The notes beneath the pieces are model-generated. The model was not told the origin of the DNA and did not search any database. It saw only the letters and a program-made list of their open reading frames with translations. A stretch of DNA of 64,000 nucleotides from Glaucostegus cemiculus. Its lineage: Eukaryota. The stretch spans positions 1,054,001-1,118,000 of the forward strand of contig CDPCPM010000160.1 of the NCBI GenBank assembly GCA_976551045.1, written 5' to 3'. The translations under genes and the position numbers were made by a program. How positions within the stretch are numbered: the first letter of the stretch is position 1; each line of letters starts with the position of its first letter. This document shows, one piece after another, positions 1,491-63,599 of this stretch.

Positions 1491-2064
1491 GTCAACTATC
1501 ACAATTGGACTTCACCCTCCCGCTGAGCCTCAGAGCCGGCCACAGCACCACTGACCTGGCTGCTGTGGAACGCGGAAAAGATGGACTTTCACGCCGGAGA
1601 GTTGAAAATCGACATGGGGGAGTGTCAGCGAAATGGCGTTCAGCATTCCACATGAAGAAAGAAGTGCAGATCAGTTCAATTCAGGCAAGGGTCACTTGGC
1701 AATGAGAATGATGATGGAAAATCACAGGTCAGCCCAGAGGAGAATTGCTAACGCACACGTGATTGATCCAAACCCATCAGCATAACATTTTCTTACCGGC
1801 AATGAAACAAAGTACAATGTAAGTATCGATGTTGTTCAACCAATTAAAGTTGTTATCTCACACAACAAACAAACACATATTGGATATCGTCACAGGAATT
1901 TGCGTTGCAAGCCAAACAGCGTATACTAATAACTCGAGGATACTTTACTCAGCACTAGGCTAGACCATACCAGATAGTGTATCAACAAAAACGATATCTC
2001 TGTTCTTTGTTCTGTTCTGTTGCTGAACTCTGACTCATCATCCAGCTCTCGATATATCAGATAC

Positions 2065-2327
2065 CTAATACGAGAAAGTCTCGCGTTGTTAAACTTGATC
2101 GTTCGGTTACATTGTTAAATGCCTCACAAGTGTAACTGCCGGTGTCATTCATGGATAAGTCAACAAGGTCCAGGCATTGTCCACTTGTTTGAAGAGCTGA
2201 CCATTGAAGTACCACTGAAATGCAGGAGCGGGGTTCGAAACAGCTAAACACGAAAAAAATACATTTGACCCGGTACCGTGCGCGGCAAGATCTGGGCTGA
2301 CGGATATGGTTAAATTTTCAGGTCCAT
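2065..2327 (-). pseudogene. Gene A exon 4, IgC2 B-type with 1-bp deletion (frameshift near 2200, premature TGA 2151-2149)
   Basis: 263 nt versus 264 nt in paralog 29800-30063; AATGGT-CAGCTCTTCAAA versus AATGGTTCATCTCTTCAAA; the two halves of the Ig domain lie in different frames. Confidence 0.75.
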
Positions 2328-5300
2328 CTAAAACAAATGCACAGTCCGTTTACAGAATGTCACCCAGGATTCTAAACCATATTTCTGTCCCGTCACCAGG
2401 CAACTACATCCATCTCAATACAGAGAAGCCACTGGAAAACTCAGGCTACCCATTCCCAAATGATCACACCTCAGAACAGAATAAATGGGTATGGAAGCAG
2501 CTACATTCAGCAGACGATAGCCATTTGCACAAACTGCGATGCAATCTGCTCTGCCAGACAAGGTTAGAATTGTCTGGATATCATGCTTGCTGTGAAATCA
2601 GCAAGTTCTGGAGGACAGTGGCCGGTACAACCTTTATCCTGAGGGGGAAGCTGTCGTCATGGTGAAAGTTCACCTGGCAGAGAGGGGGATGTTTCTGCTC
2701 GGAAGGAAGGTGGGGCAACGTTTGCTTTTGCTGCAATCTCCCGACTCTCCAGTGAGGATTACAAACGACTCTTGTGAGTAGAGCATAAAATGGAAAATAG
2801 TGAGTTGTGATTTCCCTTCTTTTATTCCTGCACCATTCCTGGATTGCTCCCGACCTAACAAAGTAAATGAATTGACCACATAGCCTGCTTTGCATTTAAT
2901 TAATTTGTGTTTTGCAACATTGTTTGCAAAATTTTGTCTCTCAACGTCTATAATTCATTCCAAAATCAGTAAGGCCCAACATCAACAACTATGAAACTGC
3001 AGGAGAACATTGAAACCTGTCTAGCTCATTCATAACCTCCAGGAAAACAAGTCAACTGCAGGACCCAATCTGTATCCCTCCGTGACCACAACCGCCCCTC
3101 ACCTCCCATGTGGTTTACTGGAACTCTCTTCTGAATCTAGGCTGATTGCACAAGATAATGTTTTCGTCTTCATTTCTCCAGAGGAATCCGACATCACTGC
3201 TCGGGCCATCATTTCTTGTTCATCCTTAAGTTCTCTGAATCAAATGTCAGCAAAAAGCCACCAACATTGATGAGCCTGAAGCTGTGCTGAGAACAGACAT
3301 GTTAAGGAGGGCAAATTTCCTTCCCCGAGGACAATAGTGAACCCAATGTTTGTAACCACTTTCCTGCAAATGCCTGACCTCCACTATGGCCACTGTATGT
3401 TATTCCTGTCACGTCTGTGTGCAGTTAGCAAGTTTTGGATTTGCCCGGGTACTCATGTTTCCTCCCACCTTCAAAAAACGTTCATGTTGATTGATGAACT
3501 GGTCAGTGCGAATTGTGCACAGTGTGTATCTGAGTGAAGAATCTTGGGATTATACCACTCAGATACGCACTCAGAAAATTGTTGATCGGAATGTGAGGAG
3601 AATTAAAAGATGGGATTAATGTAGGGTTTGTGTAATGAAATAAATAAAAGAACGTTCAGGGAAATTCATCAAAATAAATTGAAAACATTGAATATAATTT
3701 CGAAACAAGTGACTTTGCCATTAAATCAGGATCCAAGGACCTGCATCTGGCGATACTATTTTGGCGCCTTACTTTGAATAGTGAACTTGACAATTGCATT
3801 TGATTTGTTTTAATTTGGGGGTGACACGTTCCTTGGAGTATGGCTTGTCCTCTGGTTGTCTGCCATGTTGAAGGTGGGTTTGAGGGCTGAAATGGAGATT
3901 GTTTCCATACCAATTTACGCACAGATATACTGGAGCAGCCAAAGGTAACTCACAGATATTAATCAAACGGAAAAACGTTCACCTGGACGGGGATCCATGG
4001 CCGTGAGGATGGATTTGATCAATACAGATATTAACATGGCTTGAAAAGGAGAAAACAGAATTTTATCCGTCTCCTCATCGGCCGATTGGTCAAAATATTT
4101 TCAGTCGAACCTCATGCCAGTGAAACCCAATACAATCGCGGAGATATGTTACAATATTTCACACACTGTTAGATCACACAGGCCACCACAGTGGCACTTA
4201 CAGCGAACGTTTAGTAGAAATGGATCGCTGGTGTTCGTATTCACCAAGTTGTACGCATCGCAGTTAAATTCCTCGTCCGATCTCAGCACCCCAGAGACAG
4301 TCAAGGTGCTGTTGTTGGAACTTAGGGTTATCCTACCGCCAGCGCTAACCGTCTTGTTGTTCTTAAACCACAGATACGAAACATCCGTTCCTTTTGCTTG
4401 GCACGTCAAACTAACTGTGTCATTGTATTCTACGGGTTTGGTATCATTGGATGTGATAACGGGCTTAGAAGCAGGTTCTGATAAAACAAAGTAGATCATG
4501 AAATACTTGTCACATATTGCGCAGGACGTATCCCCAAAAGATACACAGTATGTCACATGAAGCAACATATTGCTTATTCTGCAAATCATAGATGAAAACA
4601 GATATGTTGTAAATGCTCAATAGACCTGTCAGCGGCGGTGGGGAAGGAATTCTGGTTTAACATTCAGGTGGTCAATTAAGAACTGAACAGTGACGACCAC
4701 TTGGAGAAACATTGCACTTTCATAAACTTGGTGTGAAATAAAGCAAAGTTGCTTATTGCCGTATGCTTGAAAACAATGATAATTCACCATTAAAATAAGC
4801 GAGACGCAGGTGTGAGCAGACCAGAAAAGGGGCTCTGAAACACAATTACGTTACACCTTCAGTTAATAATATCGCAGACAAAACTAAAGTTCGCCACAGG
4901 GACGGCAGGACTGCTCACCATCCTCGATACATTGCGCATTCTAATCATCATTATTGTAGACATGGTACAGTATTCTGCTTTGCTCTCAGCTTTGAATATA
5001 TAATCCCCAGCAGAATATGACAGTTTCTACAGTTCACAATACTCAGGAAAGTAATCGCAGACATACAAACAAACCTGAGACCCACAGAGTCCGTGTCAAT
5101 CAAACCATCCAACATGAAGCCTCCTGGCCAGATTCATAATTTGCATTGTTTTCATTGTACATGTTGGTGCAATTGGACGATTGAATAGGAACAAGTAATG
5201 TTGTGGGTAATTCCATGGAGATCATGACTTAATACTTGGTGTTAAATGTCCTCAGCCATTTCTAACAATCAGTGAGCGAGGGAGTAAATGATCCGTCAAT

Positions 5301-8300: not shown

Positions 8301-10848
8301 GAGTAAGGTCAAAGGACATGTGAGAGGCATATTTTCTACCCACCTCTGTGTTGGGTACCCTGAATGCTGCGCCAGCAGTGGTGGTGCAGGCAAATACGAT
8401 AGAGGAGTTCAAGAGGCCCTTAGAAATACACATGAATGCACAGAAAACGGAGGGATATGGAAATTGTTGAGTTGGCCATGTGATTCAATCTGTTCGGTAC
8501 AACATTGAGGGCCGATGCGCCTGTTCCTGTGCTGTACTGTTTGTATGTTCTACACTGGAACTGTAAGATAGAGGAGAAATTGTGGCGAGAATCTCTGAAA
8601 TGAAAGGGAATTCCGTAAGCAATTCTGTGGAGAGAGAGAGAAACTGGATTTCGCCTGACATCGGAACTGACCTGTACTGCCACAAACAGGCAGGCTGTTT
8701 ATCCGAAATTGTTGAATACGTTATTGATTCCCCATACGGAAGTAAAGGGTGAAGAAACCGTGACTGACTGTAACTGTACATATAACTGATGGAAAACTCC
8801 CTCGGAAGCAAGAGCACAAAAGCTACTGACTCATGGTGAGTTGATAATTACTGTGCCCGGAACATTGGATATAGACCAGGTATGCTAGACAATTAAAGTG
8901 CTGGGTGCAATAATCAATGAGTGAGAAGCTTGCTCTAAACAATGAGGGTGATACCTGTCTTTGAATCTCTTGATTATAAACCAATTATGTTGGACAATAT
9001 GTACGATGTCTGTCTTTGGATCTCCGAGGCCTGACCGAAATTTGCGGCGCCGCATTCATTAAGTGTGCATGGCAATACCTGTATAAATTTCCGTCTGATC
9101 CTTTGTACGAAAGAGTCCCCGGGAAGCAATTCTCACGAGTGCTAAAGAGACCTCTCCTCAGCGGTGTACTTCTAATACACGCGTTTTATTGAATCAACCC
9201 GGTGACACTGTGTTACTTTGCCGCAGACAGAAGTGGGAACGAAATCGGGACGACACCCGGAGTCTGCAATGAGCAGAGGCGGCTAGTGAGGTTCCACGGA
9301 TGGATTGTACTGTTTTGTTAGGTATTGGGTGTGATTGGCAAAGACTCTCAGGTCGGCCCGTGGCGCTACTGCCACGGAGCTGTCAGGGAGAGCTCCCTAA
9401 AGCTCTGAGTGTCTTCTCTGATGCCTGTGTATTGGAGGAAGTCGGTCAACCCCTAGTTCCAGACGAACCTACTTCTCCCTGTTCGAAGAGTAGTTCAAGT
9501 CAGCTGACCTTGAACGTGGGGTTCAGCTGCACTGGATAAACTAACGAAGTAATGAGAAGCAGACACGATGAGATGCGGCAGAGATCAACTCAGCATCTCG
9601 CAATGATGCAGAGACCAGGACACGAGAGTGCCGGTGATCCGGACCTCCCGCGGGACAGCTTTGAAGGCTCGTGTGCGATTGTGTGTTTCAGGGGTGAGTT
9701 GGTCACAGACCTCAATGAGGGGCTAACTTTGAGAGCGTGACCCTCAAATTGCACTGTTTCCATGGCGATGAAAACCCGGAACATCACCGAGTCTCTGTCA
9801 ATTTTCAGCTCAATGAGATTGAAACACTCTCCTGGGACTAACATCGGCGATTCGCCCAAGGGACGTCATTTAGCCCACCGCTAAATTTCGCAGAAATGTA
9901 CCGGGTCTTCGGACCGAAATCACGTTGAAATGAGGGGAAGCAGTAGAGCGTAGGACCAAGTGTAACTGGCTGAGGTTCCATGTTGTTCTCATTTTAGATA
10001 TGGCGCAGTCACAGAGAACAGAGAGAGCAGCAGTAAGTGAAGAGGGATCGGCCGGGTTCTCACGGCGCGGGGTTCCGCACCCACAGGAACCCTCTCCCCG
10101 AATCCGACCGGCCGGCCGATACCTGTCCGGAAGGGACCCCAAACTGAATCGAATCCTATCCATTAGATGTAATTTCTCGTTCGGAAAGAGTGCATTCTCC
10201 AACAATTGAGTTGGGTAGAAAAGGTTAAATATATTCATTCACCACAGTAATAAAATGAAAATATAAGTCCGGAAATAAATGACTGAACAAGACCAACGTC
10301 TCACTCACCAAGGACCCGCAGAGTGATGGTCGCTGAAGCTGAAGAGCCGCTATTTGTAAACGTGGCCAGACGATACTCCCCGCTGTCCGAGGTGTTCACC
10401 GACTTCAGCAGGAGCGACCCGTTGGAGGTGAATACCTCAGCCCGTGAGTGGTACCCACTACCATAGAGCACACTTCCACCGGTCCACTGGGCGACTGTTT
10501 TCCCATTGAAAAGCCAGTTCCCACCGGTGATCTCGGCCGACGGCCGCACTGAAAAGAACGCATTTCCTCCGTCGGGCACATTGATCCGGCTCTGTTCTGC
10601 GTTGATGAGAAAAGCCTGAGACTCACCTGAGGAAGAGAAATTCGCATGCGGGTAAAGCAAAAGAAGCGGATGGACTCCAGAATCTGCACTTAGCTCAAAA
10701 ATTAGATCGTTTTTGGGAAGCTCATCTGCTTTTCCAAAACTACCCTCTGCTGTGGTGATTCCCTGTTAACGGTCCTTCCGAGAGAGTGACCCTCACCCGC
10801 AGATATGAAGAGACAAAGAGCGAGCGCGGTGAGCGGCAGCTCCGCCAT
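2065..10848 (-). CDS. Gene A (5' part, continues beyond window start): CEACAM-like, leader-N-IgC2A-IgC2B(frameshifted); possible pseudogene or truncated secreted form
   Basis: Exons 10797-10848, 10309-10626, 4202-4477, 2065-2327 with GT/AG boundaries, all phase 1; inverted paralog of gene B. Confidence 0.82.
4202..4477 (-). CDS. Gene A exon 3, IgC2 A-type
   Basis: EPASKPVITSNDTKPVEYNDTVSLTC...YLWF...EEFNCDAYN; 276 nt, T|GTAAGT donor. Confidence 0.88.
7550..8552 (+). mobile_element. Decayed CR1-clade LINE 3' fragments
   Basis: KFADDT-like segment, PHL.CCVQFWSP motif, 3' tail gggccga.g.gcctgttcctgtgctgtactgt...tatgttcta. Confidence 0.75.
8562..9255 (+). mobile_element. LTR-like element related to 13370-14162, in gene A intron 2
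   Basis: Shares CTGTATAAATTTC.GTCTG, GAGTGCTAAAG.GAC and the 3' end CACTGTGTT...GACAGAAG...ATCGGGA.GACA. 5' boundary (TGTAAG) uncertain; no matching TSD found. Confidence 0.55.
10309..10626 (-). CDS. Gene A exon 2, Cys-less IgV N domain
   Basis: 318 nt, GESQAFLINAEQSRINV...NW.FNG...NGSLLLKSVNTSDSGEY; ~72% aa identical to gene B N domain. Confidence 0.9.
10797..10848 (-). CDS. Gene A exon 1, signal peptide (MAELPLTALALCLFISA)
   Basis: cgggATGG context, hydrophobic leader, G|GTGAGG donor. Confidence 0.88.
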
Positions 10849-10960
10849 CCCGAGAGAGTAGCGTCTGTGTCTGCCACACTCTGAGACTGAGCCCGCTTCC
10901 TTGTCTCCGAGCCACATCACTGGAGTCAGTCGTCAGAAGCGGCACCGCTGATTGGACCGG
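10849..10960 (-). promoter_or_regulatory. Putative gene A proximal promoter/5'UTR with CCAAT box (ATTGG at 10951-10955), TGACTCC and AGGAAG
   Basis: Inverted homolog of 16590-16704; homology ends just upstream of the CCAAT box. Confidence 0.5.
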
Positions 10961-11099
10961 CTGCTGCCTGCCTGCGGCGTAGGCAGAGAAGGAAGTAAAG
11001 TAAAACTGAGAAGGACCACTCGGCCCCTCATACATATTCCATCATGCTGTACCATCACATGTGACCTTTTGTCAGCACCACTTCCCTGCACTAAACTCT

Positions 11100-11750
11100 G
11101 AAGGAGAGGAGAAGGGGTATCAACTTCTTTTTCCAGGGTGGAAATGTCTGATGCCAGAGGGCACGGGTTTTTAGAACATAGAATATAGAAAAGCTGCAGC
11201 ACAATTCAGCCCCTTCGGCCCACAAAGCTGTGCTGAACATATCCGTGCACTAGAAATTACTGGGCATTCCATAGACCTCTATTTTACTATGCTCCATGTA
11301 CCTATCTAACAGTCTCTTGAATGACCCTATCGTATTCGCCTCCACCACCCTTGCCTGCAGCCCATTCCACGCACTCACCACTCTCTGAGTAAAACATTTA
11401 CCCCACATATCTGCTCTATATCTACTCCCAAGCACCTTAAACCTATGTCCTCTTGTGTCCACAATTTCAGCCCTGGGGAAAAGCCTCTATCTACCCGATC
11501 AATACCTCTCTGTGGTGAAAGGGGGGACGTTTGAAGGAGACGTAGGAGGCAAGTGGGTGGGTGGGTGTCTGGAACGGGCTACGGGCGGTGCAAGCATTTG
11601 GGCAGGCAACTGAGCATTCAGAGAATGGAGGGATATGGACCATCCGCGTGCAGATGAGATTATTTTAAATTGACACCCTGGCAGGCACAAACAAGGTGGG
11701 CTGAAGGGCCTGGTCCTGTGCTGTACTGTTCTATGTCCTGTATTCTACGT
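11100..11750. mobile_element. CR1 3' fragments, a minus-strand copy (~11170-11500) nested in a plus-strand copy
   Basis: ORF 11250-11462 TRGHRFKV...FTQRVV.AWN.L...VVEA.TI.SFK.LLDRYM is the CR1 ORF2 C-terminus; tails on both strands. Confidence 0.75.
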
Positions 11751-12412
11751 TCTATTTTTTACCGCTTGATTCTTCACGGTCCAGAAATCCTCTTCTTGAT
11801 CCCTCAGAGACTGACTCACTGTAACCATCTTTGGAATGTTCTAAATATTCACCAGCATCTGGTTGGATGAACAATTTTATTCTCGTCTCCACACTCGTGC
11901 AGTCATAGATCTGAAACGACTTTTAATCTCACACACAAAAATAACTTACTTCAACTCTCTGTCGTTCTTGTTTGTTTTCAATAACAGTCAGCCCACGCGG
12001 GAATATTACAACATACTAGTGCTCTAATTATGTGTAAAAGCCCTGTGCAGGACCTTGTCAACTATGTTCTGTCGGAGCAAATACATCGTATCATCTGGTT
12101 CGTCCTTAAATATTCTGCTGGTAACAATCTGGAAAAAAATCAGATTTGTCAAGCATGCTTTCTGTCCCATTAATCTATTTTGACATTGACCTACTGTGGT
12201 ATTATTTTCTCAGTGTCAATGAGAGACTCTTGCAACTCCCCAGACCTTGATGCCAGTCTAACATCTCCTGATTTCTCTTTTTTGTTCTCTTCCTCCTTTC
12301 TGATATAGCAATGTTACCTTTCCTACTTTCCAATCTGTGGGGATTTTTCTGAACTCTGAGGAATTTATGAAAAGGACAACCCATGTGTCCACTTCCTCCA
12401 TTGTCATCGTGA

Positions 12413-12695
12413 GGCGGTTAGTGTAACGTTATTACAGCGCTAGCGACCCGGGTTCAATTCCAGCCGCTGAAGAGTTTGTACGTTCTCCCCGTGTCTACGT
12501 GCGTTTCCTCCGGGTGCTCCGGCTTCCTCCCACATTCCAAAGGACGTAAATGTTAGCAGTTGAGGGTATACTATGTTGGCTCCGGAAGCGGGCGACACTT
12601 GCGGGCTACCCAGCACATTCTCAGCAACGCAAAAAGACGCATTTCATTACTTGTTTCGATGTACATGTGACTAATAAATAAATATATTTTCTTAT
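12413..12695 (+). mobile_element. tRNA-derived V-SINE (HE1-like)
   Basis: Pol III B box GGTTCAATTCC, V-domain ttctccccgtg...tttcctccgggtgctccggcttcctcccaca, A/T-rich tail. Confidence 0.8.
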
Positions 12696-13369
12696 CTCTT
12701 TTAAAACATCCGGTTCCATGTCACCAGATCCCTGAAAATAATCTTTTAAATTAACTGATGTTCATTTCTTTTAGATCCTGTTTTTTTTTTCTCCACACCT
12801 GTTCCCCACCACAGTGTGGATTGTTCTTCCTCCTTCCCTGAAGACACACGACAATATTCGTTTACCTCCTCGGCCATTTCCTTATTCTTATATATAGTTT
12901 AGTGCTTCCGTCTGCAAAACACCGGCGATTAACGCTGGCTGATCCTTTTCATGTTTACCTTTGGAGAAATTCCTTCGGTAGGACTCGTAGGTGAATGCAG
13001 GTTATGTGGATTGGGAATCTACAGAGCAATAATGGGAGAGGGATTTTCCATTTTCACTGCCGTGTCTCTCTAAACGGGACATGGGAACGCTCTAAGTAAA
13101 TGAGTTCTGGTTCAATCCTCCACCTCTATTTTCACCCATCTCTATGACAGCTGCCCTTTCGCTGCTTTATTTCCCAACATCTGCATTCCCAAATACCCAA
13201 TCTGTCAATATCGTCAGTTTGCTTCTACTTCTTTCAGCTCTATAGACAGAGGTTGTTGTTTTATAAGGTTGCGCCCACTGAAATGTGGGGAATATATTGG
13301 CCTTTGAAGCCGTCCATTAAACCAGAAGTCAGACCCTGATCTTCCACACTGTCTCATCTCTCGGTCCTC

Positions 13370-14162
13370 TGTGGTAGTAAAGGGTTAAAATTGCCACTAT
13401 CTTTGGTTTCTAGAAAAGACCACAGACTTCTTCCCAACCTGGACTGGGTAGGGGGATGACTGCTTAGCTGAGGAATGTCAGGCATGTTGATCACCTTTGT
13501 CTAGGTATCAGAATACATTGAGCTGACAGGGACCAACATTAACATCTATAGCACAGACTACCATTGAAACTGGCAATTAGTATCACTGCAGACTAACACT
13601 ATCGCTATAGACAGCTGCAGCCCCCCCCCCACTGTTTTGAATCAACAATCGTTGTAGACAGCTGCAGCCCCGTTGTTTGAAATCGACATCCCTCTATATC
13701 CCTATAGTCAACAGTAATGTCAACTGAAATTTACATAGTATCAGACTCCAGCTCTGTCATTAACATTGGGAGGGAAGCAGACAGTCCGGCAGCTAACAGG
13801 GGTGATACCCACGTTTGTCCCTATTGATCGGAATCCAATTATACTTGAGGGACTACTTTTACATTTGTATAGTTTGTCGGAAACTCTTGATCGGAATCCA
13901 ATTATACTTGATGACTACTTTTTACATTTGTATAGTTTGTTCGAAACTCACGGCGCCGGGTGCATGGGGTTAGCATGGGAAAATCTGTATAAATTTCTGT
14001 CTGCCCACTGCTCTGAGAGATACCTTGGGAAGCGACTCTGTGTGAGTGCTAAAGGGACTCTCCTAGCAGTACTGCTAAGAAAATAAAGGTACCTTTCGAC
14101 CAGACCTCGTGGCACTGTGTTTCTTGCAACGGACAGAAGGGGAAATCGATATCGGGATGACA
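13370..14162 (+). mobile_element. Solo LTR (ERV or gypsy-type), 793 bp
   Basis: TGT...ACA termini, 4-bp target-site duplication CCTC (13366-13369, 14163-14166), TATA-like GTATAAA ~13987, AATAAA ~14082. Confidence 0.75.
13824..13949. repeat. 63-bp tandem duplication inside the LTR U3 region
   Basis: ttgatcggaatccaattatacttga...gaaactc at 13824-13886 and 13887-13949. Confidence 0.9.
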
Positions 14163-14774
14163 CCTCAATGCCCCCTTCCCCATTGAGTACCGGATTCCAG
14201 AAGGATTAACAGGGCGGGCGGGTACGGAGAGGTTATTTCCCCTGCGCTGTAGGGTGTGAAACCAGGGGAGGCTGTCTCAGGATAAAAGCTGTCCATTTAA
14301 TACAGTGATGAGGATGGTTTGATTCACCAGAATCTTTGACATTCTGACCCAGGATGCAGCGAATATTCAGTCTCAGAGTGCAAAGTTTTTAGATAGGGTA
14401 AGTCTTGATTATGGACTCTTAAAGATTCCGGAGATTGCAGGCGACGTACGAGATCGGACATGACCCGTCTGAAAGGCGGAGCCGGCTCGAAGATTCGGGT
14501 GGTCTGCAGTTACCCACATGACCCCAGGTCCACGGATGCCAAACCACCCTCCTGTAGTAACAGGACAACGCCTGTGCTCTGCGCTGTTGCACTTTCGACC
14601 ACACATTTGTAAGCAGCTGTTACAGTGTTGGTAACAGGTGTGCAGTTGTGCCCCTCCCTGGAAATGCCCACCTGCTGAATGTCTCAGCAGTAGAGCATCC
14701 TGACACAGAAATACCCTTCCCTAGATATAGGAAAGTTAATGTAGACTTTAAAGGAGGAGGCATCAAAATTGTTA

Positions 14775-15012
14775 TTAATTTATTTATTGGTATTGGTATT
14801 GGATTATTATTGTCACGTACCGAGGTACAGTGAAAAGCTTGTCTTCCAAACCAATCGTACAGGTCAACTCATTACACAGTGCAGTTACATTGAGTTAAAA
14901 GAGTGCATTGGTGTAGTACAGGTAAAAATAATAGCAGTACAGAGTAAAGTGTCACAGGTACAGAGAAAGAGCAGTGCAATAAGGTGCAAGGTCGCAACAA
15001 GTTAGATCGTGA
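14775..15012 (-). mobile_element. Non-LTR retrotransposon 3' end; same family as 63600-63860
   Basis: Reverse complement matches gaccttgcac.ttattg...cactgcacttt...tgtacc...acctcggtac....gacaataataa at 63660-63850. Confidence 0.6.
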
Positions 15013-16326
15013 AGAATATATAGCATGATTTTCCTTTGCATTTCGGGGATGCTCTAAATATATCATCCACAAAGAAAGATGGTGCAGGGAACAGACATTT
15101 GCAGCTTCCGAACCTTGGGTCAACTGTTGATAAATCGCTGACAAAGGGAGAAGCTCAGAACACCAGGGAAATGCGCAGTTCCGTGGCTTCTTTCACCTTC
15201 ATTTCCAGAATCCAGAGTCGGAGAGGAATAACAAAGATTTCCTTCAGATTGTTATAGGATTCTAACGGCCATAACACGGCCACGGTCTCAACAACTTAAC
15301 CTTGAGTTTCTGATGATACATTAATGAACATTTCCTTTGTAGAAAGAAATGTGAAGTGTCAATGCTGGTGTTCAAGAGGATTTGGATGCACATGTGTGGG
15401 GTACACGGGTGTTTAACATGAAGCTATAGTGTGCACTGAGGAGAAAGGTTATGGTGGCCTTTATGACAAACGCTTTGGAGACTCAGGGTACGAAATCCTG
15501 TTGAAACTGCGCAGGGTTTCGGCGAAAGTGGACATGATGTCCAACGTACAATCAACCAAAGGTAGGACAGACATGCCTTGAGGTTTCCCGCCGACCGATG
15601 ACCAATGAGGATGTGCCGAATCTGAGAGTCCTCAAAGAGATGTATATGAATGCTGAGGGTAATTGGAGGGCAGATGCTGAAAATGTTGATGCCACTTTCC
15701 TATTTCCCATATTCGAAACCCTGGACTCGCGTAATGGGCCATCAATAAGATCGGGAAACACTGGAACGTGGAACAGAACGTGTGGTTCCTCCACTCCGCT
15801 CCGCTCGGCAATAAGATAACGGCTAATCTGATCTTGGTCACACCTCAATTCCAGTCGGTCCCCATCAGTCGCAACCTCGGATGTCCAACCACATGTCTGT
15901 GTCGGCTGTGAATATTGTACACTCAGTGACCCCACCTTCAAAGCTCGCCGAGGTAGAGAAGTCAAAAGGTTGACCATCCTCGTTGAGTACAAACACCTCA
16001 TCGTCTGCATGTTAATTGCGACACCACTTACTCTGAAATTCTTCCCCGTGCGAGATATCCTCGCTCGTATCCTCTCTGACAGCACCAACCAACCAAAACC
16101 CACTCCGGACTTTACAAGAATAGCACACAGCCAAGATATAGTTTGGGTGCAGTATTTTTATTCTCGGTTTTCTTTGGACGTGGAGTTCGGGTACACGTGC
16201 GGCAAACGGGAAGCAGAGATGCGAAGGTGGTCAAACACCAAAGTCGGGGAGGAGGGTGATGCTCACGTTGTTGGTAAATTGTGAGTAGGCTTCCCCAGAA
16301 AGATGAGGGTCTGAAATGATCACCAT

Positions 16327-16507
16327 GTGTGTGAGTGCCTGTGTGTGTGTGTCTGTCTGTCTGTCCGTCTCTGTCTGTATCTGAGCGGCTGTGTCTGTGT
16401 ATGTGTCTGTGTTTGTATGTTTGTGTCTGTTTATGTCTATCTGAGTTTTGCGTGTGTATGTGTGTGTGTGTGTCTGTCTGTCTGTGTTCATCTGTGTCAG
16501 TGTCTGG
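16327..16507. repeat. Compound (TG)n/(TGTC)n microsatellite immediately upstream of the gene B promoter
   Basis: Direct reading. Confidence 0.9.
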
Positions 16508-16589
16508 GTGAGATTTTCTCTATTTCTGTTGCAGACAATTTGCACGTGATTTTGATTCGCTGGAAATTCTTCGCTATCAGCTGAGCGGG

Positions 16590-16704
16590 GACCGGACCAA
16601 TCAGCGCTGCAGCTTCTGACGACTGACTCCAGTGATTTGGCCCGGAGACCAGGAAGCGCGGCTCAGTCTCCGAGTGTAACAAACACAGGCGCTGCTCTCT
16701 CGGG
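16590..16704 (+). promoter_or_regulatory. Putative gene B proximal promoter/5'UTR with NF-Y CCAAT box (GACCAATCAG, CCAAT at 16597-16601), TGACTCC and ETS-like AGGAAG
   Basis: Motifs conserved in order and spacing upstream of gene A; no obvious TATA box. Confidence 0.5.
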
Positions 16705-16756
16705 ATGGAGGGGCTGCCGCTCACCGCGCTCGCTCTTTGTCTCTTCATACCTGCGG
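16705..16756 (+). CDS. Gene B exon 1, signal peptide (MEGLPLTALALCLFIPA)
   Basis: Kozak-like cgggATGG, hydrophobic leader, phase-1 donor G|GTGAGG; near-identical to gene A leader. Confidence 0.9.
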
Positions 16757-19700
16757 GTGAGGGTCACTCTGTCGGAGAGATAGTTAACAAGGAATCACAG
16801 CGGCGGAGGGTTGTGGAAAAGCGTATGAGCTTCCCAGAAACGATCTAATATTGAGCTAAGTGCAGATTCTGGAGTCTCTCCGCTTCTTTCGCTTTTCCCT
16901 CACACGAATTTTTCTTCCTCAGGTGAGTCACAGTTTACCATCCACGCAGAACACAGCCGGATCAATGTGACCGAAGGAGGAAATGCGTTCTTTTCAGTGC
17001 GGCCGACGGCCGAGTTCGCCGGTGGAAACTGGGGTTTCGATGGGAAAACAGTCGTCCAGTGGACGGATACAAAACCGTTCTATGGTAGTGGGTACCAATC
17101 ACGGGCTGAGCTGTTCACCTCCAACGGGTCGCTCCTACTGAAGATGGTGAACACCTTGGACAGCGGAGAGTACACTGTGACCATGTTTACACATAGCGGC
17201 TCTTTAGCTTCAGCGACCGTCACTCTGCGCATCACTGGTGAGTGAGACATTGGTCGTGTTTAATCATTTCTTTGTGACTGCTGCTCTCATTTTAAGTTGG
17301 TGGTGAATGAATCTAATTTAATCTTTCCTGTCCAACTCACTTGTCCTTACACTGTAAGTGTGCAACAGCTTACAGGCTGTTACATGGTCGCAGTGTAACT
17401 TGGTGAAGGAGGTATTTTTCCGGTCTGGAATTTGTAAATAAAGAGTAAGGCCGGTCTACCTTCGATTCATTTTCGGATATCTCTCGGGCAGGCATCTGCC
17501 GTCTGGTAAACTACAGACAGAGGATGCATGTGGGGTGGGACACGGTGCCGTGTTTCTCTGCCTCAGCCTCCCTTTCACCTCACTCTTCCATCGCATGACA
17601 ATGCTAGTGTTTACCACGCGATAAAAGGGAACTGTATTTTGATCCAGGAGTTAAATCAGTGTCCCCAGTTTTCCAGGGGGAGTCTGTGGAGAGAATATAA
17701 GCAGAAGGAGGGTTTCAGGTCGATGCCATTTCATCAGATAGTGAGTTGAGAAGTCAATGATATCCCATCGGACCAGGGGCTTTCCTCCTGCCTGTGATCG
17801 GCGCTCCCGGATCTTCTTGAAAGGAAAGATGTAGACCCTATTGCAACAAACGGCGGGACTTCCGGGCCTCATGACCTGCATCACCACGAGACAAGGTGGA
17901 TTTGGCCTAATGACTTGTCCTTGGGTCTAGAAACTATTATTTATCACAGAGGGGTTGATGCACACTGCTACTGGAGCAGGGTCAGGAGTTCCGAAAACTT
18001 AAAATGCTCTACCGGAAGTTTTACTCCAATGGCCTGTGCCTGATGCATGTACAAATGATATGTTAGCAGAGCACAATAGTTTTTGTTACAAGTTGTTTTA
18101 ATTCACAAAGTGTATTTCTTTTGCTTTGAACTAACGGCGTGGAATGGAGATTTCAGTGGCTCAATTGCCTTAGAAAGTTGTTGATAACATTGGAGCGCCG
18201 GACTGTTATGTGCTTTACATTTTAACTGTCTGTCTCTTATCTTACGCCTTCCCAATACATGTTCAGAATTCAGTGCAGATGACGCTATTCTTTAACAGAT
18301 CTACAGGTGGACTTCCTGATATTAAAGTGATTATTTGTATCCTTTGCACACCTCTTCAGTGTCGCTACTTTATCTACTTCACCTGACAAAACAAAGAGAG
18401 ATACTGGGGTGCATTAGCAATACAGACTGTGGTTTAAAAGTTGTCCATACATTTCATTGTTGATTTGGAGCTAAAGATTAGGGATCAAGCGTAGACCTTC
18501 ACCCTGCCCAGCCTTCTGAGTTATGTTTGTGGTAATAGATTTCCTTATTACGTGAGTTACTTTTAACACCAGCACATATCTCAATAGAGTCATATAGTCA
18601 TACAGCACGGAAACAGGCCCTTCGGCCCACTGCGTACTTGCCCGCCATCAAGCACCCATTTCCACGTAATGTATTATTCTCCACATTCCCATCAACTCCC
18701 TCCAGACTCGACTGCTCGCCTACACCCTAGGGACAAATTGCAGTGGCCATTTAGCGAACCATTTTTTTGCGGATATTGGAACCATTTTGTTCCAAGGCTG
18801 CACATAACCAAGCAATGAAGATGACCGTTTATTGATTAAGGACAGGGAATTCGTTCCAGTTCTTTTGTATAAACAGGCAGAAACTTGGGCTTTCCTCTTT
18901 CCTCCATGACGCGGTCCAGACGACAGATCTCCCTGCTGACAGGTCAAAGCATTCAGAAGACTTGAAACAATGAGACACCCCACAGAATACCTTTGTTTCA
19001 GTTTTCTCACGCTTGGTTTGTAAATGTAAAGAGTAAAGCAGGTTGGGACATAACCAGAATTGTACGGACACAATTATACATTAGTTATAGTTGGTGTCTC
19101 TGCTGTCATCTCTGCACATGTTACTTTGATTGATGAGGTTGTAAATGGGTAGGAGCCGGTTTCATGGTATTTAGAAAGTTTTTATCAAGGTCGCAATAGC
19201 AGGTGTGATCCCCTCCATTCCAACAAGTTTTCGCTGGCTGTCATATTGATGCTGAAAGCCAGTCAGATTCAGTGTGTCGTAACCCGTCCAATTACGTGGC
19301 AGCAACGGAAACGAACCTTGGCATTCCCTTTGGAAAGCAAATGTGCACCTGCTGTGTTAATATAATATTTAAGATCTGAACAACTGGTTGCGTTTAGATA
19401 GTTTCTATCATGTTCTAACTTATTCTCTGGTACCCATGGGAATTTTATGAAACAAAATTTGGAACCAGGATAATATGGGGCAGGCGGCAGACGGCTTGGG
19501 CCAAAGGGAGATTTGAATGGGAGGAAGATGGGGAGGGGATGGAGATGGAGGGAGAGTGTCAGTGTGGACGGGATTACAACAACAAACAGTTGACTGCTGC
19601 TTCCAGCAGAAATTAAAAACTAGATACATGAAAGGAAAGGAATAATCTCCGTTCGTGTGTTGGCGGTTGTAGATTAGAATCCGGAAGTGAAACATGTCCA

Positions 19701-22700
19701 TTCATAACTCGTCGCAATTCCCAAGTTTAGACTGGTGTGGCAATGGGATGGGGAAGAGTTCCTGGGACATACCTGGCTCCGTCAGGTTTTATCTCCTTTG
19801 AAGTTGAGAAATATTGTGAAGCCACACATGAGTGAACCTTCAACTGAGTGACTGGAGATAGAACAGTGAAATCTCTGGTCACTACGTTAAACAATAGATG
19901 TTCTCCAGAGAGAGTAGCAAGTCACCAATTACACTCCCAGCAAAGGCCCATAGGCAGCTCACACATCCATGACCCACGGTCAGACACAACACGATCCCAT
20001 TTCCAACGGCCGGGACCAGCAGTGCGAGGCCCGTTGTTTAAGGCGAGAATCTCATCTGCCCTCTGCATTTAAATAAAACTTTGCCACACTGCGCAGAACC
20101 AGACCATTCGACCCATCAATCCATGTCTGATCCTACACCAATCCACTTTAATTCTCTCCAGGTTCCCGACAATTCCTCCACGATTCTAGCACTCGGCTTA
20201 GCAGCAGGAAAATTTAGAGCAGCTAAATTCTGCTCCACTTCTGCTCCATAATTACCCGAGTGGAGGAGGAAGAATGGAGGAGCAGGTCATTGTTTAACTG
20301 GAGAGAGACAGCGGAGATCTGGGTGTCCGACTGCATGAAGCACTGGGAAGTTAGCGTAGACGTAGATAAGAATCAATGTTGTCGTCGTTGCAAAGGCGAT
20401 GAATATGAATGGAGACAACTGGATAGACAATGGGTGAGATCATAGCTGCACGACTGCATGTAGTCCCTCTCTCTCTCTGTGCCTCTCTGTGCCTATCTGT
20501 CTTGCTGAATGTTGTCCTGCTGAGAGTGAGCGGGGTGCTCCCTGCTCCACTACCGAACAAGAGAAAAATGACTCCTCACTTTGCAAGAGTTATATTTTGC
20601 GTCATGTTCCAGTTATGGTTCTGCAACAGACAGAGCCCCGATATTGCAGAGGACAGACAAGTGGCTGGATCTGAAACCATCGAGGATACAGGAAGAAAGG
20701 TCAGCTCTGTAGAAAAAAAATAGATGGGAGATGCAAGCTCAACGGTTTAGAAATTGAACAGTGTTGCTGCCTCGAGTGACCTTTGTGTCGGTGTACACAA
20801 ATCAATGAAATGTAACGTGCAGGTTCTCCGAACAATTAGGATGTAAATATTTAGCCCATACGTAACTGATACACAAATAAATCCCCTGACCTTTATTACA
20901 AAAGGGTCTGTGTATGAATGATACCATTTTCCAACTATATCGAGCCCTGATGAGAGAGCACTTTGGATATGGGGTTATCTACAAGTAGGGACAGGGTTTC
21001 AGAACAAGAGATCACGCTTTTAAGACTGAGGTGAGGAGTACTTTATAGCATTATTTCTCGAATATTTACTATTTATTTTAATGATACCGAGGAGGGGTGA
21101 ATTCTCAGGTACTTTTTGTTTATCGTTAACACGAAAATAGTTGGATGGCACGTTCACATGAGGACACTGTGCCCCATCAACAATATATGAACAGATTGAT
21201 TCAGTGGGCAAAACCCGGTCACAAAGAGTTTAATATGGGGAAGTGTGATGTCATGCACTTCAGTGAGTGGAATCCAACGGCACACTATTAACTGAATGGA
21301 AAGATATTGCAAATGAGTGATGTACGAGGGATCCCAACGGAGCTTTGGCAAGAATCACAAGAACTTTGAAGGCAGCTGCAGCAAGTAGTTAAGGAGGCAA
21401 CTAGTGTATTGGCACTTATTGCGGTGGGATTCAGAAATGGGAGGTTTGTTCCAGTTCTGCACGGTGTTGCTGAGGCCACTTCTGGAATGCTGTGCAGTTT
21501 TTTCCACTTACCGAAGAAGCGACACAATCGAGTTTGAGCGAGTCCAAAAGTGATTCCCAGAATAATTTATGCGATGAGAGGATTGTCCATTTAGAGAGAC
21601 TCAACAGGTTTGGTCTGTATTCCTAGAATGTGGAAGAATTAGGTTCTCCTCTGAGGGCGGGGAACTTCATGACTTCTCTCCCCTAGACAGCTGCAGAAGC
21701 AGAAATATGGAGTTTATCCCAGGCCACCATTCCCAGACAATGAAAATACAAGAGAGTCGAACAGTATACCGAGAGGGCGGTAAATTTGTGTGAGGACAAG
21801 ACTGGATCAACCATGATCTGAGTGATTTTTGGAGCGAGCTTCTTTAATTGGTCACATGTGGCCCCTGAATCGAGCTCGTAAACAGTTCTTGGTGTTTTCT
21901 CTTCGTTAACTAATTACTAGTGTGCAATCTCAGAGCACTATTTTGCGTCTGTTCAATAACTCATTTCGGATGTTAGTTGCTTCTTTTTGTTCAGGTGACT
22001 CGTTTAATTCCGCTTTTCATGTCATAAAACTCTCCTTTTCTCAACCTGACACAGCACACAAACTGTTACCGCGCCTTTCCATATTCCACTTGTCTTGCAT
22101 TCATAAATCAAAAAGAAACAGAACCAAGATTCTCAAATACCAACTGATGTACTAATTACCTCTGTCACGCTCCTCTGCATCATAAGACACCAGTGATCGT
22201 TCCTTTCCTGTATTTTGACAGAAGCCATTTCTAAGCCCACCATCTCAGCCAATAACACTCATCCCGTAGAGCACAACGATGCAGTTGCTCTAACGTGCGA
22301 TGCCACTGGGTCACCAACCTCATTTGAATGGTTTCATCGAAATGAAACAATTCGCTCCGGGGATAGGACCGCCCTGACTCAGGGCAATAAAACCCTCGTC
22401 ATATCGGGAGTGTTGCGGACTGATGGAGAATTTGTGTGCCGAGTGTCTGATGCTTACAATGAAAAGAGAAGTGATCCATATAATCTGAATGTTGCCTGTA
22501 AGTGTAAAAACAAACTCCGCAAGCATTCGTTAATTATTACCAAACCTACGGAAAGTACTGGAAGGGAAGTTTTTCACTTTCTGTTTGTTTGATCTGAATC
22601 AGATATCTGACACGAAATTTGTAAAAACGTACATGGCGTCATGGTTACATGTTCAACCGTGCACGTCTGAGCAATGTAGGTTTGGTAATGCCTGGGGAAG

Positions 22701-25700
22701 CTGACAGATAGGACGATGATCAAGGATTATGTTTCTTTGATTCCCTATCAATCACCTTGCCCAGGACAGAGTTTCCTTGGAAATGCTTTTCTTGGGTACA
22801 TCAAACAAAGCTTTGTATCCACACCTCCAAGAAATTAGCGATTACAGCAGGTCGCTGTTGAAACAGACAATTTTAATTAGCAAAATTTGCAATGCAAAGT
22901 TTACAAAGAATCAAATTCGAAAAATGGGATTAATGTTGAAGAAAGCTTTGTTTTCCATGAAATATTTAGGTTTAAGATTCGTTGCAAATTTAGTTTAGTT
23001 CAATTCTATGCATTGCACAGCTGGTAAATTGCATGATTTTACTGGCTTAATGGGGCGTGGGTGGCTCGTAGTTCGGTCGCACTCCGAGTTTTGCGTCATA
23101 TTTGAACCAACCAATGCGTTTATTTTAGATGGACTGGAATCTCTAATCGTATCAATCAGCCCAGAGCTTGCTTTATATCCTGCGGGATCAAATGTAACTT
23201 TTTCCTGTTCCACTGTTTCAAACCCCGCTGCTCAGTTTCAGTGGAATCGCAATAATTCAACACATCAGAAAAGCGGGAATCAGCTAATCATTGCAGACCT
23301 GTCCTTGAATCACACTGGCAATTACACTTGCAAAGCTTTCAACTCGATAACACAGAAATCCAGTGTGACAACAAGGTTCATTGTTGTTATAGGTAGGTGA
23401 AGAAGAAGGTGAGTGCTCCCTCCTTACTTATGGTGGCTGTTGTTGTGTTAGCTGCAAGATTAGCAGTAGATGTAGAGGAAATTGTGCGACATTGCGTCTG
23501 TTGGCGTTGTTGCTAAAATCTACTATTCTTGTTTTTAAATGTTGATTTCAGTTGTGAAGTTTTAGTTCATTTGCATTTTGTTCTATTTCTTCCTGTTTTC
23601 TTTGTAAAAACGTGGACGTTTGTATCAGGCAACTGATCTTCGCACTCAGACCTGAAGTTAAGAAGCAACTTACGTAGTTCTTTTTATGAACTTCATTGTG
23701 GGGAAATGGGATCTTAGCGCCAACGTTTGAGACCAAAGAAAAGCAGTGAATTCGTGGCAGGATTGTGTCCAATTCTAATCGGGGCACGGCTGGATCAATG
23801 TGGACATTTATGGTCTCTGCACAACAGGAAGAATCTGACACCTCTGGAGAAGATGCAAGAGGTCTGACGCAGCCGCGGTCTGGTCCAGAAATTTATCATT
23901 CCAAGAATATTGGGCTGTAGTAGCTTTTTGAAGCAATACAGTCAATACAGCTGCATAAAATTATATACCGTATGATCGTTAACGAAATCGTGCCCCATGT
24001 GCATCCTGTGAAGCCTTCCCGCACTCGTGCGGATAAACTCTACCTGTCATCTTTCTGCCCATGTCCGTAACTGATCTATATTTTGCTTTATCCTTTGGCA
24101 ACCTTCTTCACAGTTCACAATTCGAGAATTTGTTTAGTCTCCAAACCTACTGATCAGCCCGTCTACTTTTTCGTCGAAGTCACTTCTACAACAGGGGTTC
24201 CAATACGGACCCTGCGCAACACCACTGGTCACAGACCTCCAGCCAGAACAAACCCCCTCCACCACTTCCCTCTGTCTTCTATGGCCAAGAAAATGTTGAA
24301 TCGATTCTACGAAGTCAAGGTGGACCCCGTGGGCCTTAATCTTCTGGAACGGGCTGCCTTGTCTAATGCCTCACGGAAACCCATGCAGGCAACATCCACT
24401 GCCCTACCCTCATCGATGGTCTTCGCCATCTCCTCAAAGAACTCAATCAACTTCGGAAGGTTATGACCAGCCCAGCACAAAGCCTAGCTGACACTGCCCA
24501 AACGACCCATGCTCTTCCAAATGCCAATAAAACACTTGCCTAAAATTCTTCTCAAAGAGCTTCCCTCCTATTGATCCGAGTCTCACTGATCTATCATTTC
24601 CCCTACTGTCGCCTGCTGCACTTTTCAAACAAAGGGACAACTTTAGTTACTCTCCAGCCCTCTGGGACCTCGCCTGGGGTGAGAGTGGACACGAAAGTAT
24701 AAGTCAGCGCCCCAGTAGTCTACACTCTCGCCTTTTTTAATAACCTGGGATGGATCCCATCAGGGCCTGGGGACATCCGTATGAATGTTCTTCAAGAGAC
24801 TCAACACCACCTCGTTGGTCACATGACCATGCCCTGGAAACTTCGCATACCCCTCCCTGATCTCACTGTCCTCCACGCCCTTCTCCTGATCCCAAGTACT
24901 CATGTAGTGCCTCACACACTTCCTCTGGTTGCAGGCTCGGATTCATTCCGTTGTCCAGAAGTTCTCCTACCATCTCCTGGGCTACTTTATTCTTAATGCA
25001 TGTACAAAGGGACAAAGGATATTCCAAAATCCTATTTTAAAAATGATATTTCGTGGTCATTTTTGGCCTAGTTCTTGCAAGAAAGAGTTCTTTCTTGCTT
25101 TCCTTTTATTCCTTAAGGGCAATGTCTGATTTCAGAGGCCTGTTGAATATTCCAGGCTATTTTACGACGGATGAGCGCACAATGGCCAAACAACAGTGCT
25201 AACAGACCAAGCAAGCTCCGCACACTGGCGATGCAGCTTTGGTTTGACGTGTTACGAGCCACTCCAGGCACGCAGCGTCCTCGGGATTTCAAGGTGAGAG
25301 CGGCTGACGCACAGTACGGCAGAAGTTGGCGAAAGACGAGATCCAGATAGGCAGTAGAAACTTGGCTCAGCATCCTTCATATTTAACATAGAAGAGTGTA
25401 GCACAGGAACCGTTCCGCCCGCGATGTTGTGCCGAACTAAAATACTCAGGGGGGAAAAAGCTGATTGTCAAAGGCAGTGAATTAATTCTGGGATATCACA
25501 AAAGGAGATTATCGGGGCCGAATTCCCAGATAACGACCATCAAAGGATTTCGCCTCGATGAAACATTTCAAAATGAAAATGGATTTTTTCAAATCAATGT
25601 CAGTGTTTAGGAACTAATATATGAAATAGTGATTGTAGCTGAAATCTGTTACCTGATAAAAATGAATGCTCTTTAAAATTTGGAAAGCACCATTTCTGTT

Positions 25701-55473: not shown

Positions 55474-55545
55474 TCACTTGTCAAATGATGTTCCCACATA
55501 CCTCTTTAGGTCGCTGTAAATGGATCGATCTTCCAGCTTCAGTCC
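55474..55545 (-). CDS. Gene C last identified coding exon (GLKLEDRSIYSDLKRYVGTSFDK*); may instead splice at AG|GTATGT (55502/55501)
   Basis: Homolog of 47305-47355; in-frame TGA at 55476-55474; 3' end uncertain because of the internal donor-like site. Confidence 0.75.
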   Translation of the reverse strand, partial: GLKLEDRSIYSDLKRYVGTSFDK

Positions 55546-62390: not shown

Positions 62391-63599
62391 CTGTAAATAA
62401 AGTTGAAATGGAATTTGTGTTACACTGTTGTCTTAACCACAACCTGTTCGTAAGAGGTGGGTATCCCCAACTCAAGACCATAACCAATCCTGGAATTCTG
62501 TCCAATTTGATTCAATATCCAACCAGATATTAGACTAAGCAGAACTCGAGTACAGTGTTTAAATATTGGCTACTGTCTGTTCAAGAGAGACAGACGTTTA
62601 CTTGGTTATAGATTGCTGGTCCTGGTCAACATTCAAAAATAAACAGGCAGCTCCCTTACTATGTTTGGACTCGCCTTATTAGTCCTATCAAAATGTATCA
62701 CCTTACAGATGTCGGGATTAAATTCTATTAGCCGCTGCACATCACAGTTTACCAACTCATCAATAACAACATCTCACCCGCCTAATCTCCCACTTCTCAA
62801 AACAGCTGATGTCCAACATTTTGGATATAGCAGAAAGGTTCAAAACATTAATCCCTGTGGTGCATCGCTGGTCACAGACACCTAATCACAAACATTGCCC
62901 ATAAGGTACCCCCTGCCTTCTATCAACAAACGACATTTTTAAAGCATTGATAAAAAGTAAACCACATGCAAATTTATTCCATGTCCCGATGGCCCTATTG
63001 GAGGCAGTAATTTGTAAAGGCAAAATAATTCAGACAGTAGGTGTCAACGGACATATTATATTATAGAGATAAATCCAACTGGGAATTTCATTTGGAATGA
63101 AATCATGAAGAACACTGGTGCAAGGTTCGAAAGTGTTGATTGCATTCACTATAGAGTGCAGTAAGAATCCCCACAGCATTAAAACCAGTGGTGGGTAACG
63201 CGTCTTCAGACTGGAGTTAATGCCATTTCCACTGTCAAACCCAACGAAAGAGTCTCTTGCTCCTGCCGATCAAGCTGTGGCTCCTGATTCACACATCCCA
63301 TTGCAAATAAAGGCAAGGATACGATCCATGATTGTCGAGCTAAGTAACTGATGAAGCACAGTTATCACTTCGCATCGATACAAACCATCAAATGAGCTAT
63401 AGCACAGAGCATAGAAATAGTCCTTTCAGCCTAAACAATCCGTGCTAGTCTCTAAACTCGCCCTAACTGTCTTCGTCCAAACGTCTCGGTGTAATGAAGG
63501 ACTCCCATCGTCCTCAATGCTTTTCAACCTCTAAGTAAATGCCACGACCGGTGAAACCATCCTCACAAATCAGGCTCAAGGACGGCTTTTACCCTCTCC

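Follow-up and report, generated by a model that had tools for sequence, protein, structure and literature searches.

Diversified N-domain faces in a CEACAM-like gene array of the ray Glaucostegus cemiculus, with microbial adhesins as the probable driver

Background

Two genes in opposite orientation, gene A on the minus and gene B on the plus strand, lie in a 64,000-nucleotide stretch of the genome of the ray Glaucostegus cemiculus (GenBank assembly GCA_976551045.1, contig CDPCPM010000160.1, here C160, positions 1,054,001 to 1,118,000 of the forward strand), which we call the window. Each begins with an N domain of the immunoglobulin V type (IgV) followed by IgC domains, and a sequence-only reading had proposed that ligand-driven diversifying selection separated the two N domains. 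The locus thus raises the question of whether such selection has acted, on which surface of the domain, and through which partner. We find that diversifying selection on N-domain codons is very probably real, that the excess becomes decisive only once paralogs are included and not from the A-B pair, and that all nine selected codons lie on the predicted CC'C''FG face. The explanation that we favour, with a probability of about 65% that attaches equally to microbes as the driver, is that a CEACAM-like array of genes with tails of the ITAM type (tyrosine-based activation motif of immunoreceptors), together with one gene bearing an ITSM (tyrosine-based switch motif of immunoreceptors), had its face codons diversified, likely by adhesins that are countered by activating decoys. 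The parts of A and B on which the tests bear are given below in window positions.

10797-10848, minus strand: gene A leader exon, 52 nt, with intron 1 at 10627-10796
10309-10626, minus strand: gene A N exon, intact, a cysteine-free IgV domain of 105 codons
10526-10457, minus strand: gene A selected codons 33, 38, 43, 50, 53 and 56
10372-10340, minus strand: gene A selected codons 85, 90 and 95
16705-16756, plus strand: gene B leader exon, 52 nt, with intron 1 at 16757-16922
16923-17237, plus strand: gene B N exon, intact, a cysteine-free IgV domain of 104 codons
17018-17089 and 17174-17206, plus strand: gene B selected codons

Diversifying selection across the N exons

A genome search recovered 51 N-exon matches among 127 candidates, all of them on C160 between 0.48 and 2.0 Mb (~1.5 Mb). 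Setting aside 13 that failed the splice rule (distant, broken or frameshifted) and seven more (four left of 626 kb, one distant, one with a stop and one frameshifted) left 31 intact exons, and removal of eight near-duplicates (<=3 nt) gave a non-redundant set of 23. Codon models were fitted with in-house GY94/F3x4 code, whose M0 likelihood of -3171.4 compares with -3171.6 from IQ-TREE. Under M0 the ratio of nonsynonymous to synonymous rates (dN/dS, ω) was 1.02, and M2a divided the codons into 38% at ω 0.23, 49% at 1 and 13% at 3.98; twice the log-likelihood difference (2ΔlnL) was 85.8 for M2a over M1a, 95.5 for M8 over M7 and 83.1 for M8 over M8a. Nine sites reached a posterior above 0.95 (gene A numbering: 33, 38, 43, 50, 53, 56, 85, 90 and 95).

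The plain M1a/M2a comparison, lacking a site-rate term, was rejected as a sole test because non-coding DNA also passes it. With site-rate variation the M2a-M1a difference was 56 (56.2), with multi-nucleotide changes 77 and with both 51, the same sites being recovered, and separate trees for two to six segments gave 51-78. Once the rate term was included, non-coding pseudo-codon controls from 19 genes dropped to 0.02-5.7, compared with 49 for the N exons of those genes, and 16 null simulations with mosaic trees and gamma rates averaged 6.3 and reached at most 19.9, against the observed 56.2. Variation at codon positions 1, 2 and 3 was 9.8, 9.2 and 2.2 at the nine sites versus 2.2, 2.3 and 2.5 elsewhere; as the first two positions are hypervariable and the third is quiet, this is not a mutation-hotspot pattern. 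CpG hotspots were likewise rejected as a cause, CpG not being enriched at the selected sites. Thirteen non-redundant IgC exons gave ω=0.48 and no class above 1, on a shorter tree and hence with less power. Among subsets of the N exons, the eight plus-strand genes with an intact membrane path gave a 2ΔlnL of 21.0, six minus-strand genes in which only the first IgC pair is broken gave 13.7, and the six-gene clade holding A, B and the ITSM gene gave 7.8 (p=0.02).

Location of the selected sites

An AlphaFold model of the gene A N domain reached a mean predicted local distance difference test score of 90, and four other models scored 32-59. Its strands run C 34-39, C' 42-48, C'' 51-54, F 82-89 and G 95-104, with letters assigned from V-set topology. 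All nine selected sites fall within the 52 codons of the CC'C''FG sheet and its loops in this predicted structure (p=0.0012); this 52-codon region follows the DSSP strands, and a narrower one of 40 codons was drawn after the sites were known. The front sheet so defined has ω=1.68 (p=0.00025) and the other 53 codons have ω=0.61 (p=0.0005). An ω of 6.1 for 15 'outward' positions was not used as evidence, these having been picked after the site results. Sites 33, 38 and 43 are likely the counterparts of CEACAM1 F29, Y34 and Q44, an equivalence that we assume from a hand alignment anchored on the C-strand tryptophan and from the human numbering. HMMER alignments back only the C''-G part of the mapping to CEACAM1. 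Changes at CEACAM1 residues 27-29, 44 and 51 are reported to alter adhesin binding (PMC8860441).

Genes A and B compared

Across 105 aligned codons the N exons of A and B show 29 amino-acid-changing and 7 purely synonymous codon differences, 45 nucleotide differences in all, plus a one-codon indel; these are exactly the counts of the sequence-only reading, and the divergent blocks that it quoted are present. The indel is an old family variant, common to six other non-redundant paralogs. The proportion of nonsynonymous differences (pN) does exceed that of synonymous ones (pS), as had been estimated by hand: 0.158 versus 0.099 by plain NG86 and 0.165 versus 0.091 with kappa 2.3. NG86 gave ω=1.67 with Z=1.45 and Fisher p=0.13, assumed transition/transversion weights of 2-4 gave p=0.04-0.08, and maximum likelihood (ML) gave ω=1.75 with a likelihood-ratio p of 0.147 (front sheet alone 2.03, p=0.15). 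The pairwise dN/dS is thus indistinguishable from 1, an outcome that the earlier reading had itself taken to speak against selection, and we rejected it as proof. Values at least as high occur in 22 of 253 paralog pairs. Between A and B, 24 of the 166 nt of intron 1 differ (14.5%), which does not depart significantly from pN (16.5%; p=0.67), so that the pairwise excess is due in part to low pS.

The paired IgC A exons differ at 11 amino acids, as claimed, with 22 nucleotide differences over the 91 codons compared. Nonsynonymous and synonymous differences stand at 37:8 in the N and 12:10 in the IgC exons (Fisher p=0.02), a contrast that speaks as much for constraint on IgC as for selection on N. 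That the changes are densest at C'C'' and FG was right as to the blocks; the 29 differences gather on the front sheet only to a modest degree, with 16 in the 40 codons (p=0.023) or 18 in the 52 codons (p=0.085). Six of the nine family-level selected codons differ between the two genes. The two wider checks that had been suggested, site models with more paralogs and placement of the sites on a structure prediction, both gave clear support. Diversifying selection on the CC'C''FG face hence stands for the family and not for the A-B pair alone, and its ligand-driven part we keep as a proposal. Codons 49-53 of gene B (window 17066-17080, plus strand) carry eight changes in 15 nt relative to A; the block occurs only in B and its copy and could be one multi-nucleotide or conversion event.

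Affinities of the family

Among named proteins, CEACAM-like ones from cartilaginous fish come closest, the best at 69-70% in Pristis pectinata (28 matches among 480 candidates). Those of Pristis pectinata, Hemitrygon akajei, Mobula, Heterodontus and Pristiophorus, which bear automatic names (NCBI), are direct relatives with N domains 47-70% identical and the same tails. The exon order of leader, N, alternating A- and B-type IgC, transmembrane (TM) and short cytoplasmic exons is the layout of CEACAM genes. Both N exons encode a V-set domain (Pfam V-set E 7.7e-5 for A and 0.0033 for B, under the curated cut-off), the model shows the V-set fold, and the N-terminal IgV domain lacks cysteine in A, B and the ITSM gene. 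R61 and D80 are nearly invariant, and N68 and S70 of an N-x-S sequon belong to the 15 invariant N-domain columns. A cysteine-free N domain, an Arg-Asp pair and an N-x-S sequon are given as features of CEACAM N domains (PMC4079198). Against the PDB, a family profile placed CEACAM1/6 as the top 6 of 22 matches with weak scores (best E 4.5e-7), and fold searches singled out no CEACAM among V-set domains, PD-L1 and TIGIT ranking above CEACAMs. CD2/SLAM N domains likewise lack the disulfide.

Among markers of the region around LIPE, BCL3, XRCC1 and TOMM40, with which CEACAM genes are syntenic, LIPE was matched on contig C414, XRCC1 on C545, and porin-3 and the TMEM145 family on other contigs. C160 ends 23 kb past the ITSM gene and has no overlap with C414; a genome search for PLAC8/CNFN gave no match, nor did 11 open reading frames (ORFs) near the C160 end match Pfam. 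The flank scans covered 100/445 and 60/488 candidate ORFs from C160 100-480 kb and the start of C414. Elsewhere on the cluster's contig, Siglec-like V-set exons at ~126 and 154 kb (the ORF at ~154 kb has Siglec-10 as its best PDB match, E 1e-9) echo the mammalian extended leukocyte receptor complex, and a divergent V-set plus IgC gene at ~403-405 kb, best matching SLAMF6 (E 1.2e-5), is CD2/SLAM-like or distantly CEACAM-like. In gene models of Hemitrygon and Mobula (P0025, P0026) a CEACAM N domain is attached to a NACHT-LRR protein, which may be a real fusion or an annotation error.

Organization of the array and probable exchange between its genes

The cluster holds 14 head-to-head minus/plus pairs, A and B being one of them, with paired N exons 4-8 kb apart. 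The unit around the window recurs every 67-68 kb, and adjoining units are 96-99% identical over 16-54 kb. Annotation covered C160 624-674, 724-1358, 1460-1700 and 1910-2086 kb. Minus- and plus-strand genes form two old classes with differing TM and tail exons; the tails of both contain YxxL-x7-YxxL, with a further Tyr motif 21 (A) or 20 (B) residues upstream. A search for ITSM-type tails with that of Pristis P0018 gave five matches, two of them significant and both in one gene, the last plus-strand gene of the array (N exon at C160 2,003,932), whose tail reads TxYxxV with a second motif TxYxxL. All other complete tails in the annotated stretches are ITAM-like, and gene A is oriented opposite to the ITSM gene. 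The remaining parts of the window's genes and the repeat arms are as follows.

10202-10960: left arm of an inverted repeat (761 bp, 85% identity) spanning promoter-proximal DNA, leader, intron 1 and N exon
16592-17344: right arm, partner of the arm at 10202-10960
4203-4478, minus strand: gene A first IgC A-type exon, intact, control exon of the sequence-only reading
2064-2325, minus strand: gene A first IgC B-type exon, frameshift near 2190, the same lesion in four further minus-strand copies
2.7-12.7 kb left of the window, minus strand: gene A remaining four IgC exons, TM exon and ITAM-like tail
22221-40258, plus strand: gene B eight IgC exons (A,B x4), with the control exon of the sequence-only reading at 27724-27999
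43633-43761, plus strand: gene B TM exon
44997-47349, plus strand: gene B cytoplasmic exons, with a YxxM motif upstream of an ITAM-like YxxL-x7-YxxL that spans two exons
55501-62430, minus strand: 3' part of the next repeat unit's minus-strand gene, with IgC, TM and ITAM-like tail

Gene B looks intact, with no stop or frameshift in its eight IgC exons. Apart from the frameshifted exon, gene A keeps open frames and normal splice sites in its leader, its N exon, the five other IgC exons, the TM exon and the tail, and since all its IgC exons have the same phase, in-frame skipping of the broken exon is plausible. The first IgC A/B pair of minus-class genes, including window 2064-4478, is broken in various ways (the shared frameshift in five, stops in others), which suggests that this pair is dispensable and skipped. 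Many stops and frameshifts also occur in IgC exons of other copies in the cluster.

Around the N exons the 761-bp inverted repeat is the sole alignable DNA between A and B, and the same holds in 9/9 minus/plus comparisons. In the tree, however, the N exons of the two classes intermix, and the partners at 1498k (minus) and 1503k (plus) differ by 3-4% in the leader-intron-N module and have no alignable flanks. Since the classes are alignable only in this module and yet share intermixed N exons and near-identical partners, we infer its repeated gene conversion between inverted neighbours. A GENECONV-like scan of 171 pairs gave nominal p values down to 0.0025, lost after correction. The N domain of gene A groups with that of the ITSM gene (98% bootstrap), to which it is 83% identical and equal at 7/9 selected sites; gene B equals the ITSM gene at 1/9. 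The earlier picture of A and B accordingly needs completing, having missed the two old classes that share only the module, the ITAM-like tails of both, and the likeness of A to an ITSM receptor from which B has moved away.

The N domain of the ITSM gene is 63% identical to that of its Pristis ortholog, and P0018 or P0016 match the gene at 75-92% in its IgC, TM and tail exons. In other species, compared through automatic gene models with few proteins each, the ITSM-tail protein falls in one clade with the ITAM proteins of its own species in Pristis (99%), Hemitrygon (97%) and Pristiophorus (96%) and does not in Heterodontus, the only addition from a further search for ITSM-tail orthologs. The traits of paired receptors seen here are one ITSM gene beside ITAM-like members, within-species likeness of N domains, opposite orientation, and selection on the CC'C''FG face; the assembled evidence corresponds to the four indicators given in PMC13278318.

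Several further observations concern the array itself. An ITAM-tailed gene at C160:1642600 has an N exon one synonymous base from that of the ITSM gene (2003932), with identical protein; it matches the ITSM unit in its 5' half and the 1,149-kb unit in its 3' half, and it may have arisen by a recent unequal crossover, which would have made a perfect decoy, or may stem from merged haplotypes or an assembly artefact in near-identical duplicated DNA. Large near-identical duplications relate C160 ~1.16-1.65 Mb to 1.65-2.0 Mb, and window 14163-58157 has a copy at C160:1577361-1621361 that includes gene B (99.2% over 44 kb, N exon identical); gene counts may be inflated by such duplications. A plus-class gene body at C160:1235000-1263000 (plus strand) adjoins the minus-strand gene at 1,230 kb and shows no leader or N-exon match, while at C160:873382-873642 an IgC B exon is inverted within the plus-strand gene whose N exon lies at 857 kb. 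A more distant minus-strand subfamily at C160:672000-724000, outside the selection tests, has four tandem N exons ~1.5 kb apart and resembles multi-N proteins of Hemitrygon, Mobula and Cetorhinus.

Proposed explanation and its alternatives

By analogy with tetrapods, we propose that microbial adhesins would bind the inhibitory ITSM receptor, that escape changes would be favoured on its face, and that ITAM paralogs would be selected to track this receptor or to cover other adhesin variants. Conversion would copy the leader-intron-N module between inverted genes, such that some decoys keep tracking the receptor (as A may do) and others diverge to other specificities (as B may have done). Expression in phagocytes and uptake signalling are assumed from mammals only. 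A fuller version, in which a decoy repertoire consists of the 67-kb head-to-head pair repeated 14 times, the inverted genes swap a 700-bp leader-plus-N cassette with each other and with the sole inhibitory receptor, and about nine face residues are retuned, is tentative and falls slightly short of an even chance.

A number of observations weigh against selection by adhesins or against steps leading to it. The A-B pair by itself is non-significant for dN/dS above 1; the codon models draw on paralogs of one assembly, in-house code and naive empirical Bayes posteriors; and intron read as codons passes the plain test too (2ΔlnL 6.7-21.9, 6/6 frames). Seven genes with decayed bodies still give a 2ΔlnL of 16.1, a signal that may partly predate their decay. 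The pairwise homoplasy index detected no intragenic recombination (N exon p=0.28 and 0.77, IgC 0.08, intron 0.56), and a single-breakpoint scan of the N exon brought no gain in the corrected Akaike criterion. Gene A differs from the ITSM receptor at 8/52 front and 10/53 back positions, a likeness not confined to the face. The ITAM-like tails lack the acidic residue that the strict consensus has at -1 to -3 (PMC7042247), and gene A has, besides its one frameshifted IgC exon, a proline in the TM helix.

The alternative that survives best, although we consider it unlikely, accepts the selection and makes the partner a host molecule, the paralogs diversifying homophilic or heterophilic specificity in self recognition or reproduction. 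Selection tests do not name the partner, the CFG face mediates both homotypic and heterotypic adhesion (PMC4079198), a testis-specific bovine CEACAM has diversified on this same face (PMC7042247), and the difference of gene B from the ITSM receptor at 8/9 selected sites is unexpected of a pure mimic. A host ligand sits poorly, however, with the ITAM-like character of all the other complete tails, and with an ITSM N domain that changes rapidly from species to species and yet, in four species, clusters with the ITAM genes of the same species, the paired-receptor signature that has been tied to pathogens (PMC5112662, PMC8860441).

Much less probable is relaxed constraint, under which A, or much of the array, would be a decaying duplicate with an N exon drifting at the neutral rate. 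The family means (pS 0.176, pN 0.190, intron 1 0.187), the M0 ω near 1 and an A-B ω not different from 1 would all fit such drift, as would the frameshift of A's first B exon, common to five copies, and the lesions that other copies carry in their IgC exons. Behind the mean of 1, nevertheless, stands a mixture of a back sheet at 0.61, a front sheet at 1.68, 15 invariant columns and a class at ω≈4, and the rest of gene A is open with a broken exon that is plausibly skippable; relaxation may still hold for the last stretch of gene A's own branch. Least credible is a statistical artefact, in which the site tests would owe their size to gene conversion, hotspots of mutation or multi-nucleotide events among recombining paralogs: non-coding controls that are significant without the rate term, null simulations reaching 19.9 and the block at gene B codons 49-53 would suit it, but stricter models still give 51-56, controls drop to 0-5.7 with the rate term, third positions are quiet at the nine sites, and these cluster on one sheet (p=0.0012 or 0.00009).

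Comparison with known systems and significance

Among the closest parallels to the ray array are the ceacam paired receptors of Xenopus (Zimmermann and Kammerer 2016, PMC5112662). As described there, that system shares with the ray a large cluster, genes with ITSMs or inhibition motifs (ITIM) and ITAM genes that have similar N domains and opposite orientation, conversion limited to the N region (putative in the ray), a nonsynonymous excess on CC'C''FG, and whole-exon dN/dS near 1.0-1.3. Unlike in Xenopus, two ITAM-class genes set head to head make up the ray unit, which is repeated 14 times with one ITSM gene at the end, and the shared module includes the leader and intron 1, not the N exon alone. 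Primate CEACAM1/3/5/6 likewise show selection on the N-domain binding surface and a shuffling of N domains between paralogs (Baker et al. 2022, PMC8860441); adhesin binding is shown in primates, whereas the ray system is known here from sequence, its identity to mammalian CEACAM1 is weak, and its C-C' loop is shorter. Turtles and crocodiles, according to a 2026 preprint (PMC13278318), have CEACAM1 with ITAM decoys, that is, one inhibitory gene and several ITAM genes in opposite orientation, with an additional Tyr motif lying 17-21 residues ahead of the ITAM, a spacing into which those of A and B fall. There, in contrast to the ray, ITAM genes number up to 11, fewer than here, and selection was tested on orthologs across species rather than on paralogs of one genome.

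The same preprint calls the spread of CEACAM N-domain selection and decoy pairing across vertebrates unclear, and what PMC3628338 and PMC4079198 say on cartilaginous fish CEACAMs, in their passages on skate expressed sequence tags, reports presence alone. Our literature search, which covered main texts and few subscription journals, turned up no study that examines selection or pairing among chondrichthyan CEACAMs. CEACAM N-domain selection and decoy pairing are known in mammals, frogs and some reptiles, and the ray case is apparently unreported. The nine named residues, with a natural pair of which A is like the inhibitory receptor and B unlike it, offer a handle for finding elasmobranch microbial adhesins. 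Finding these signatures in the ray, with the pairing repeated in three more chondrichthyans, would carry the pattern back to the oldest jawed lineage; if the fuller version set out above holds, the array would amount to a germline set of receptors that catch adhesins, and the arms race between CEACAM receptors and decoys would date to the root of jawed vertebrates.

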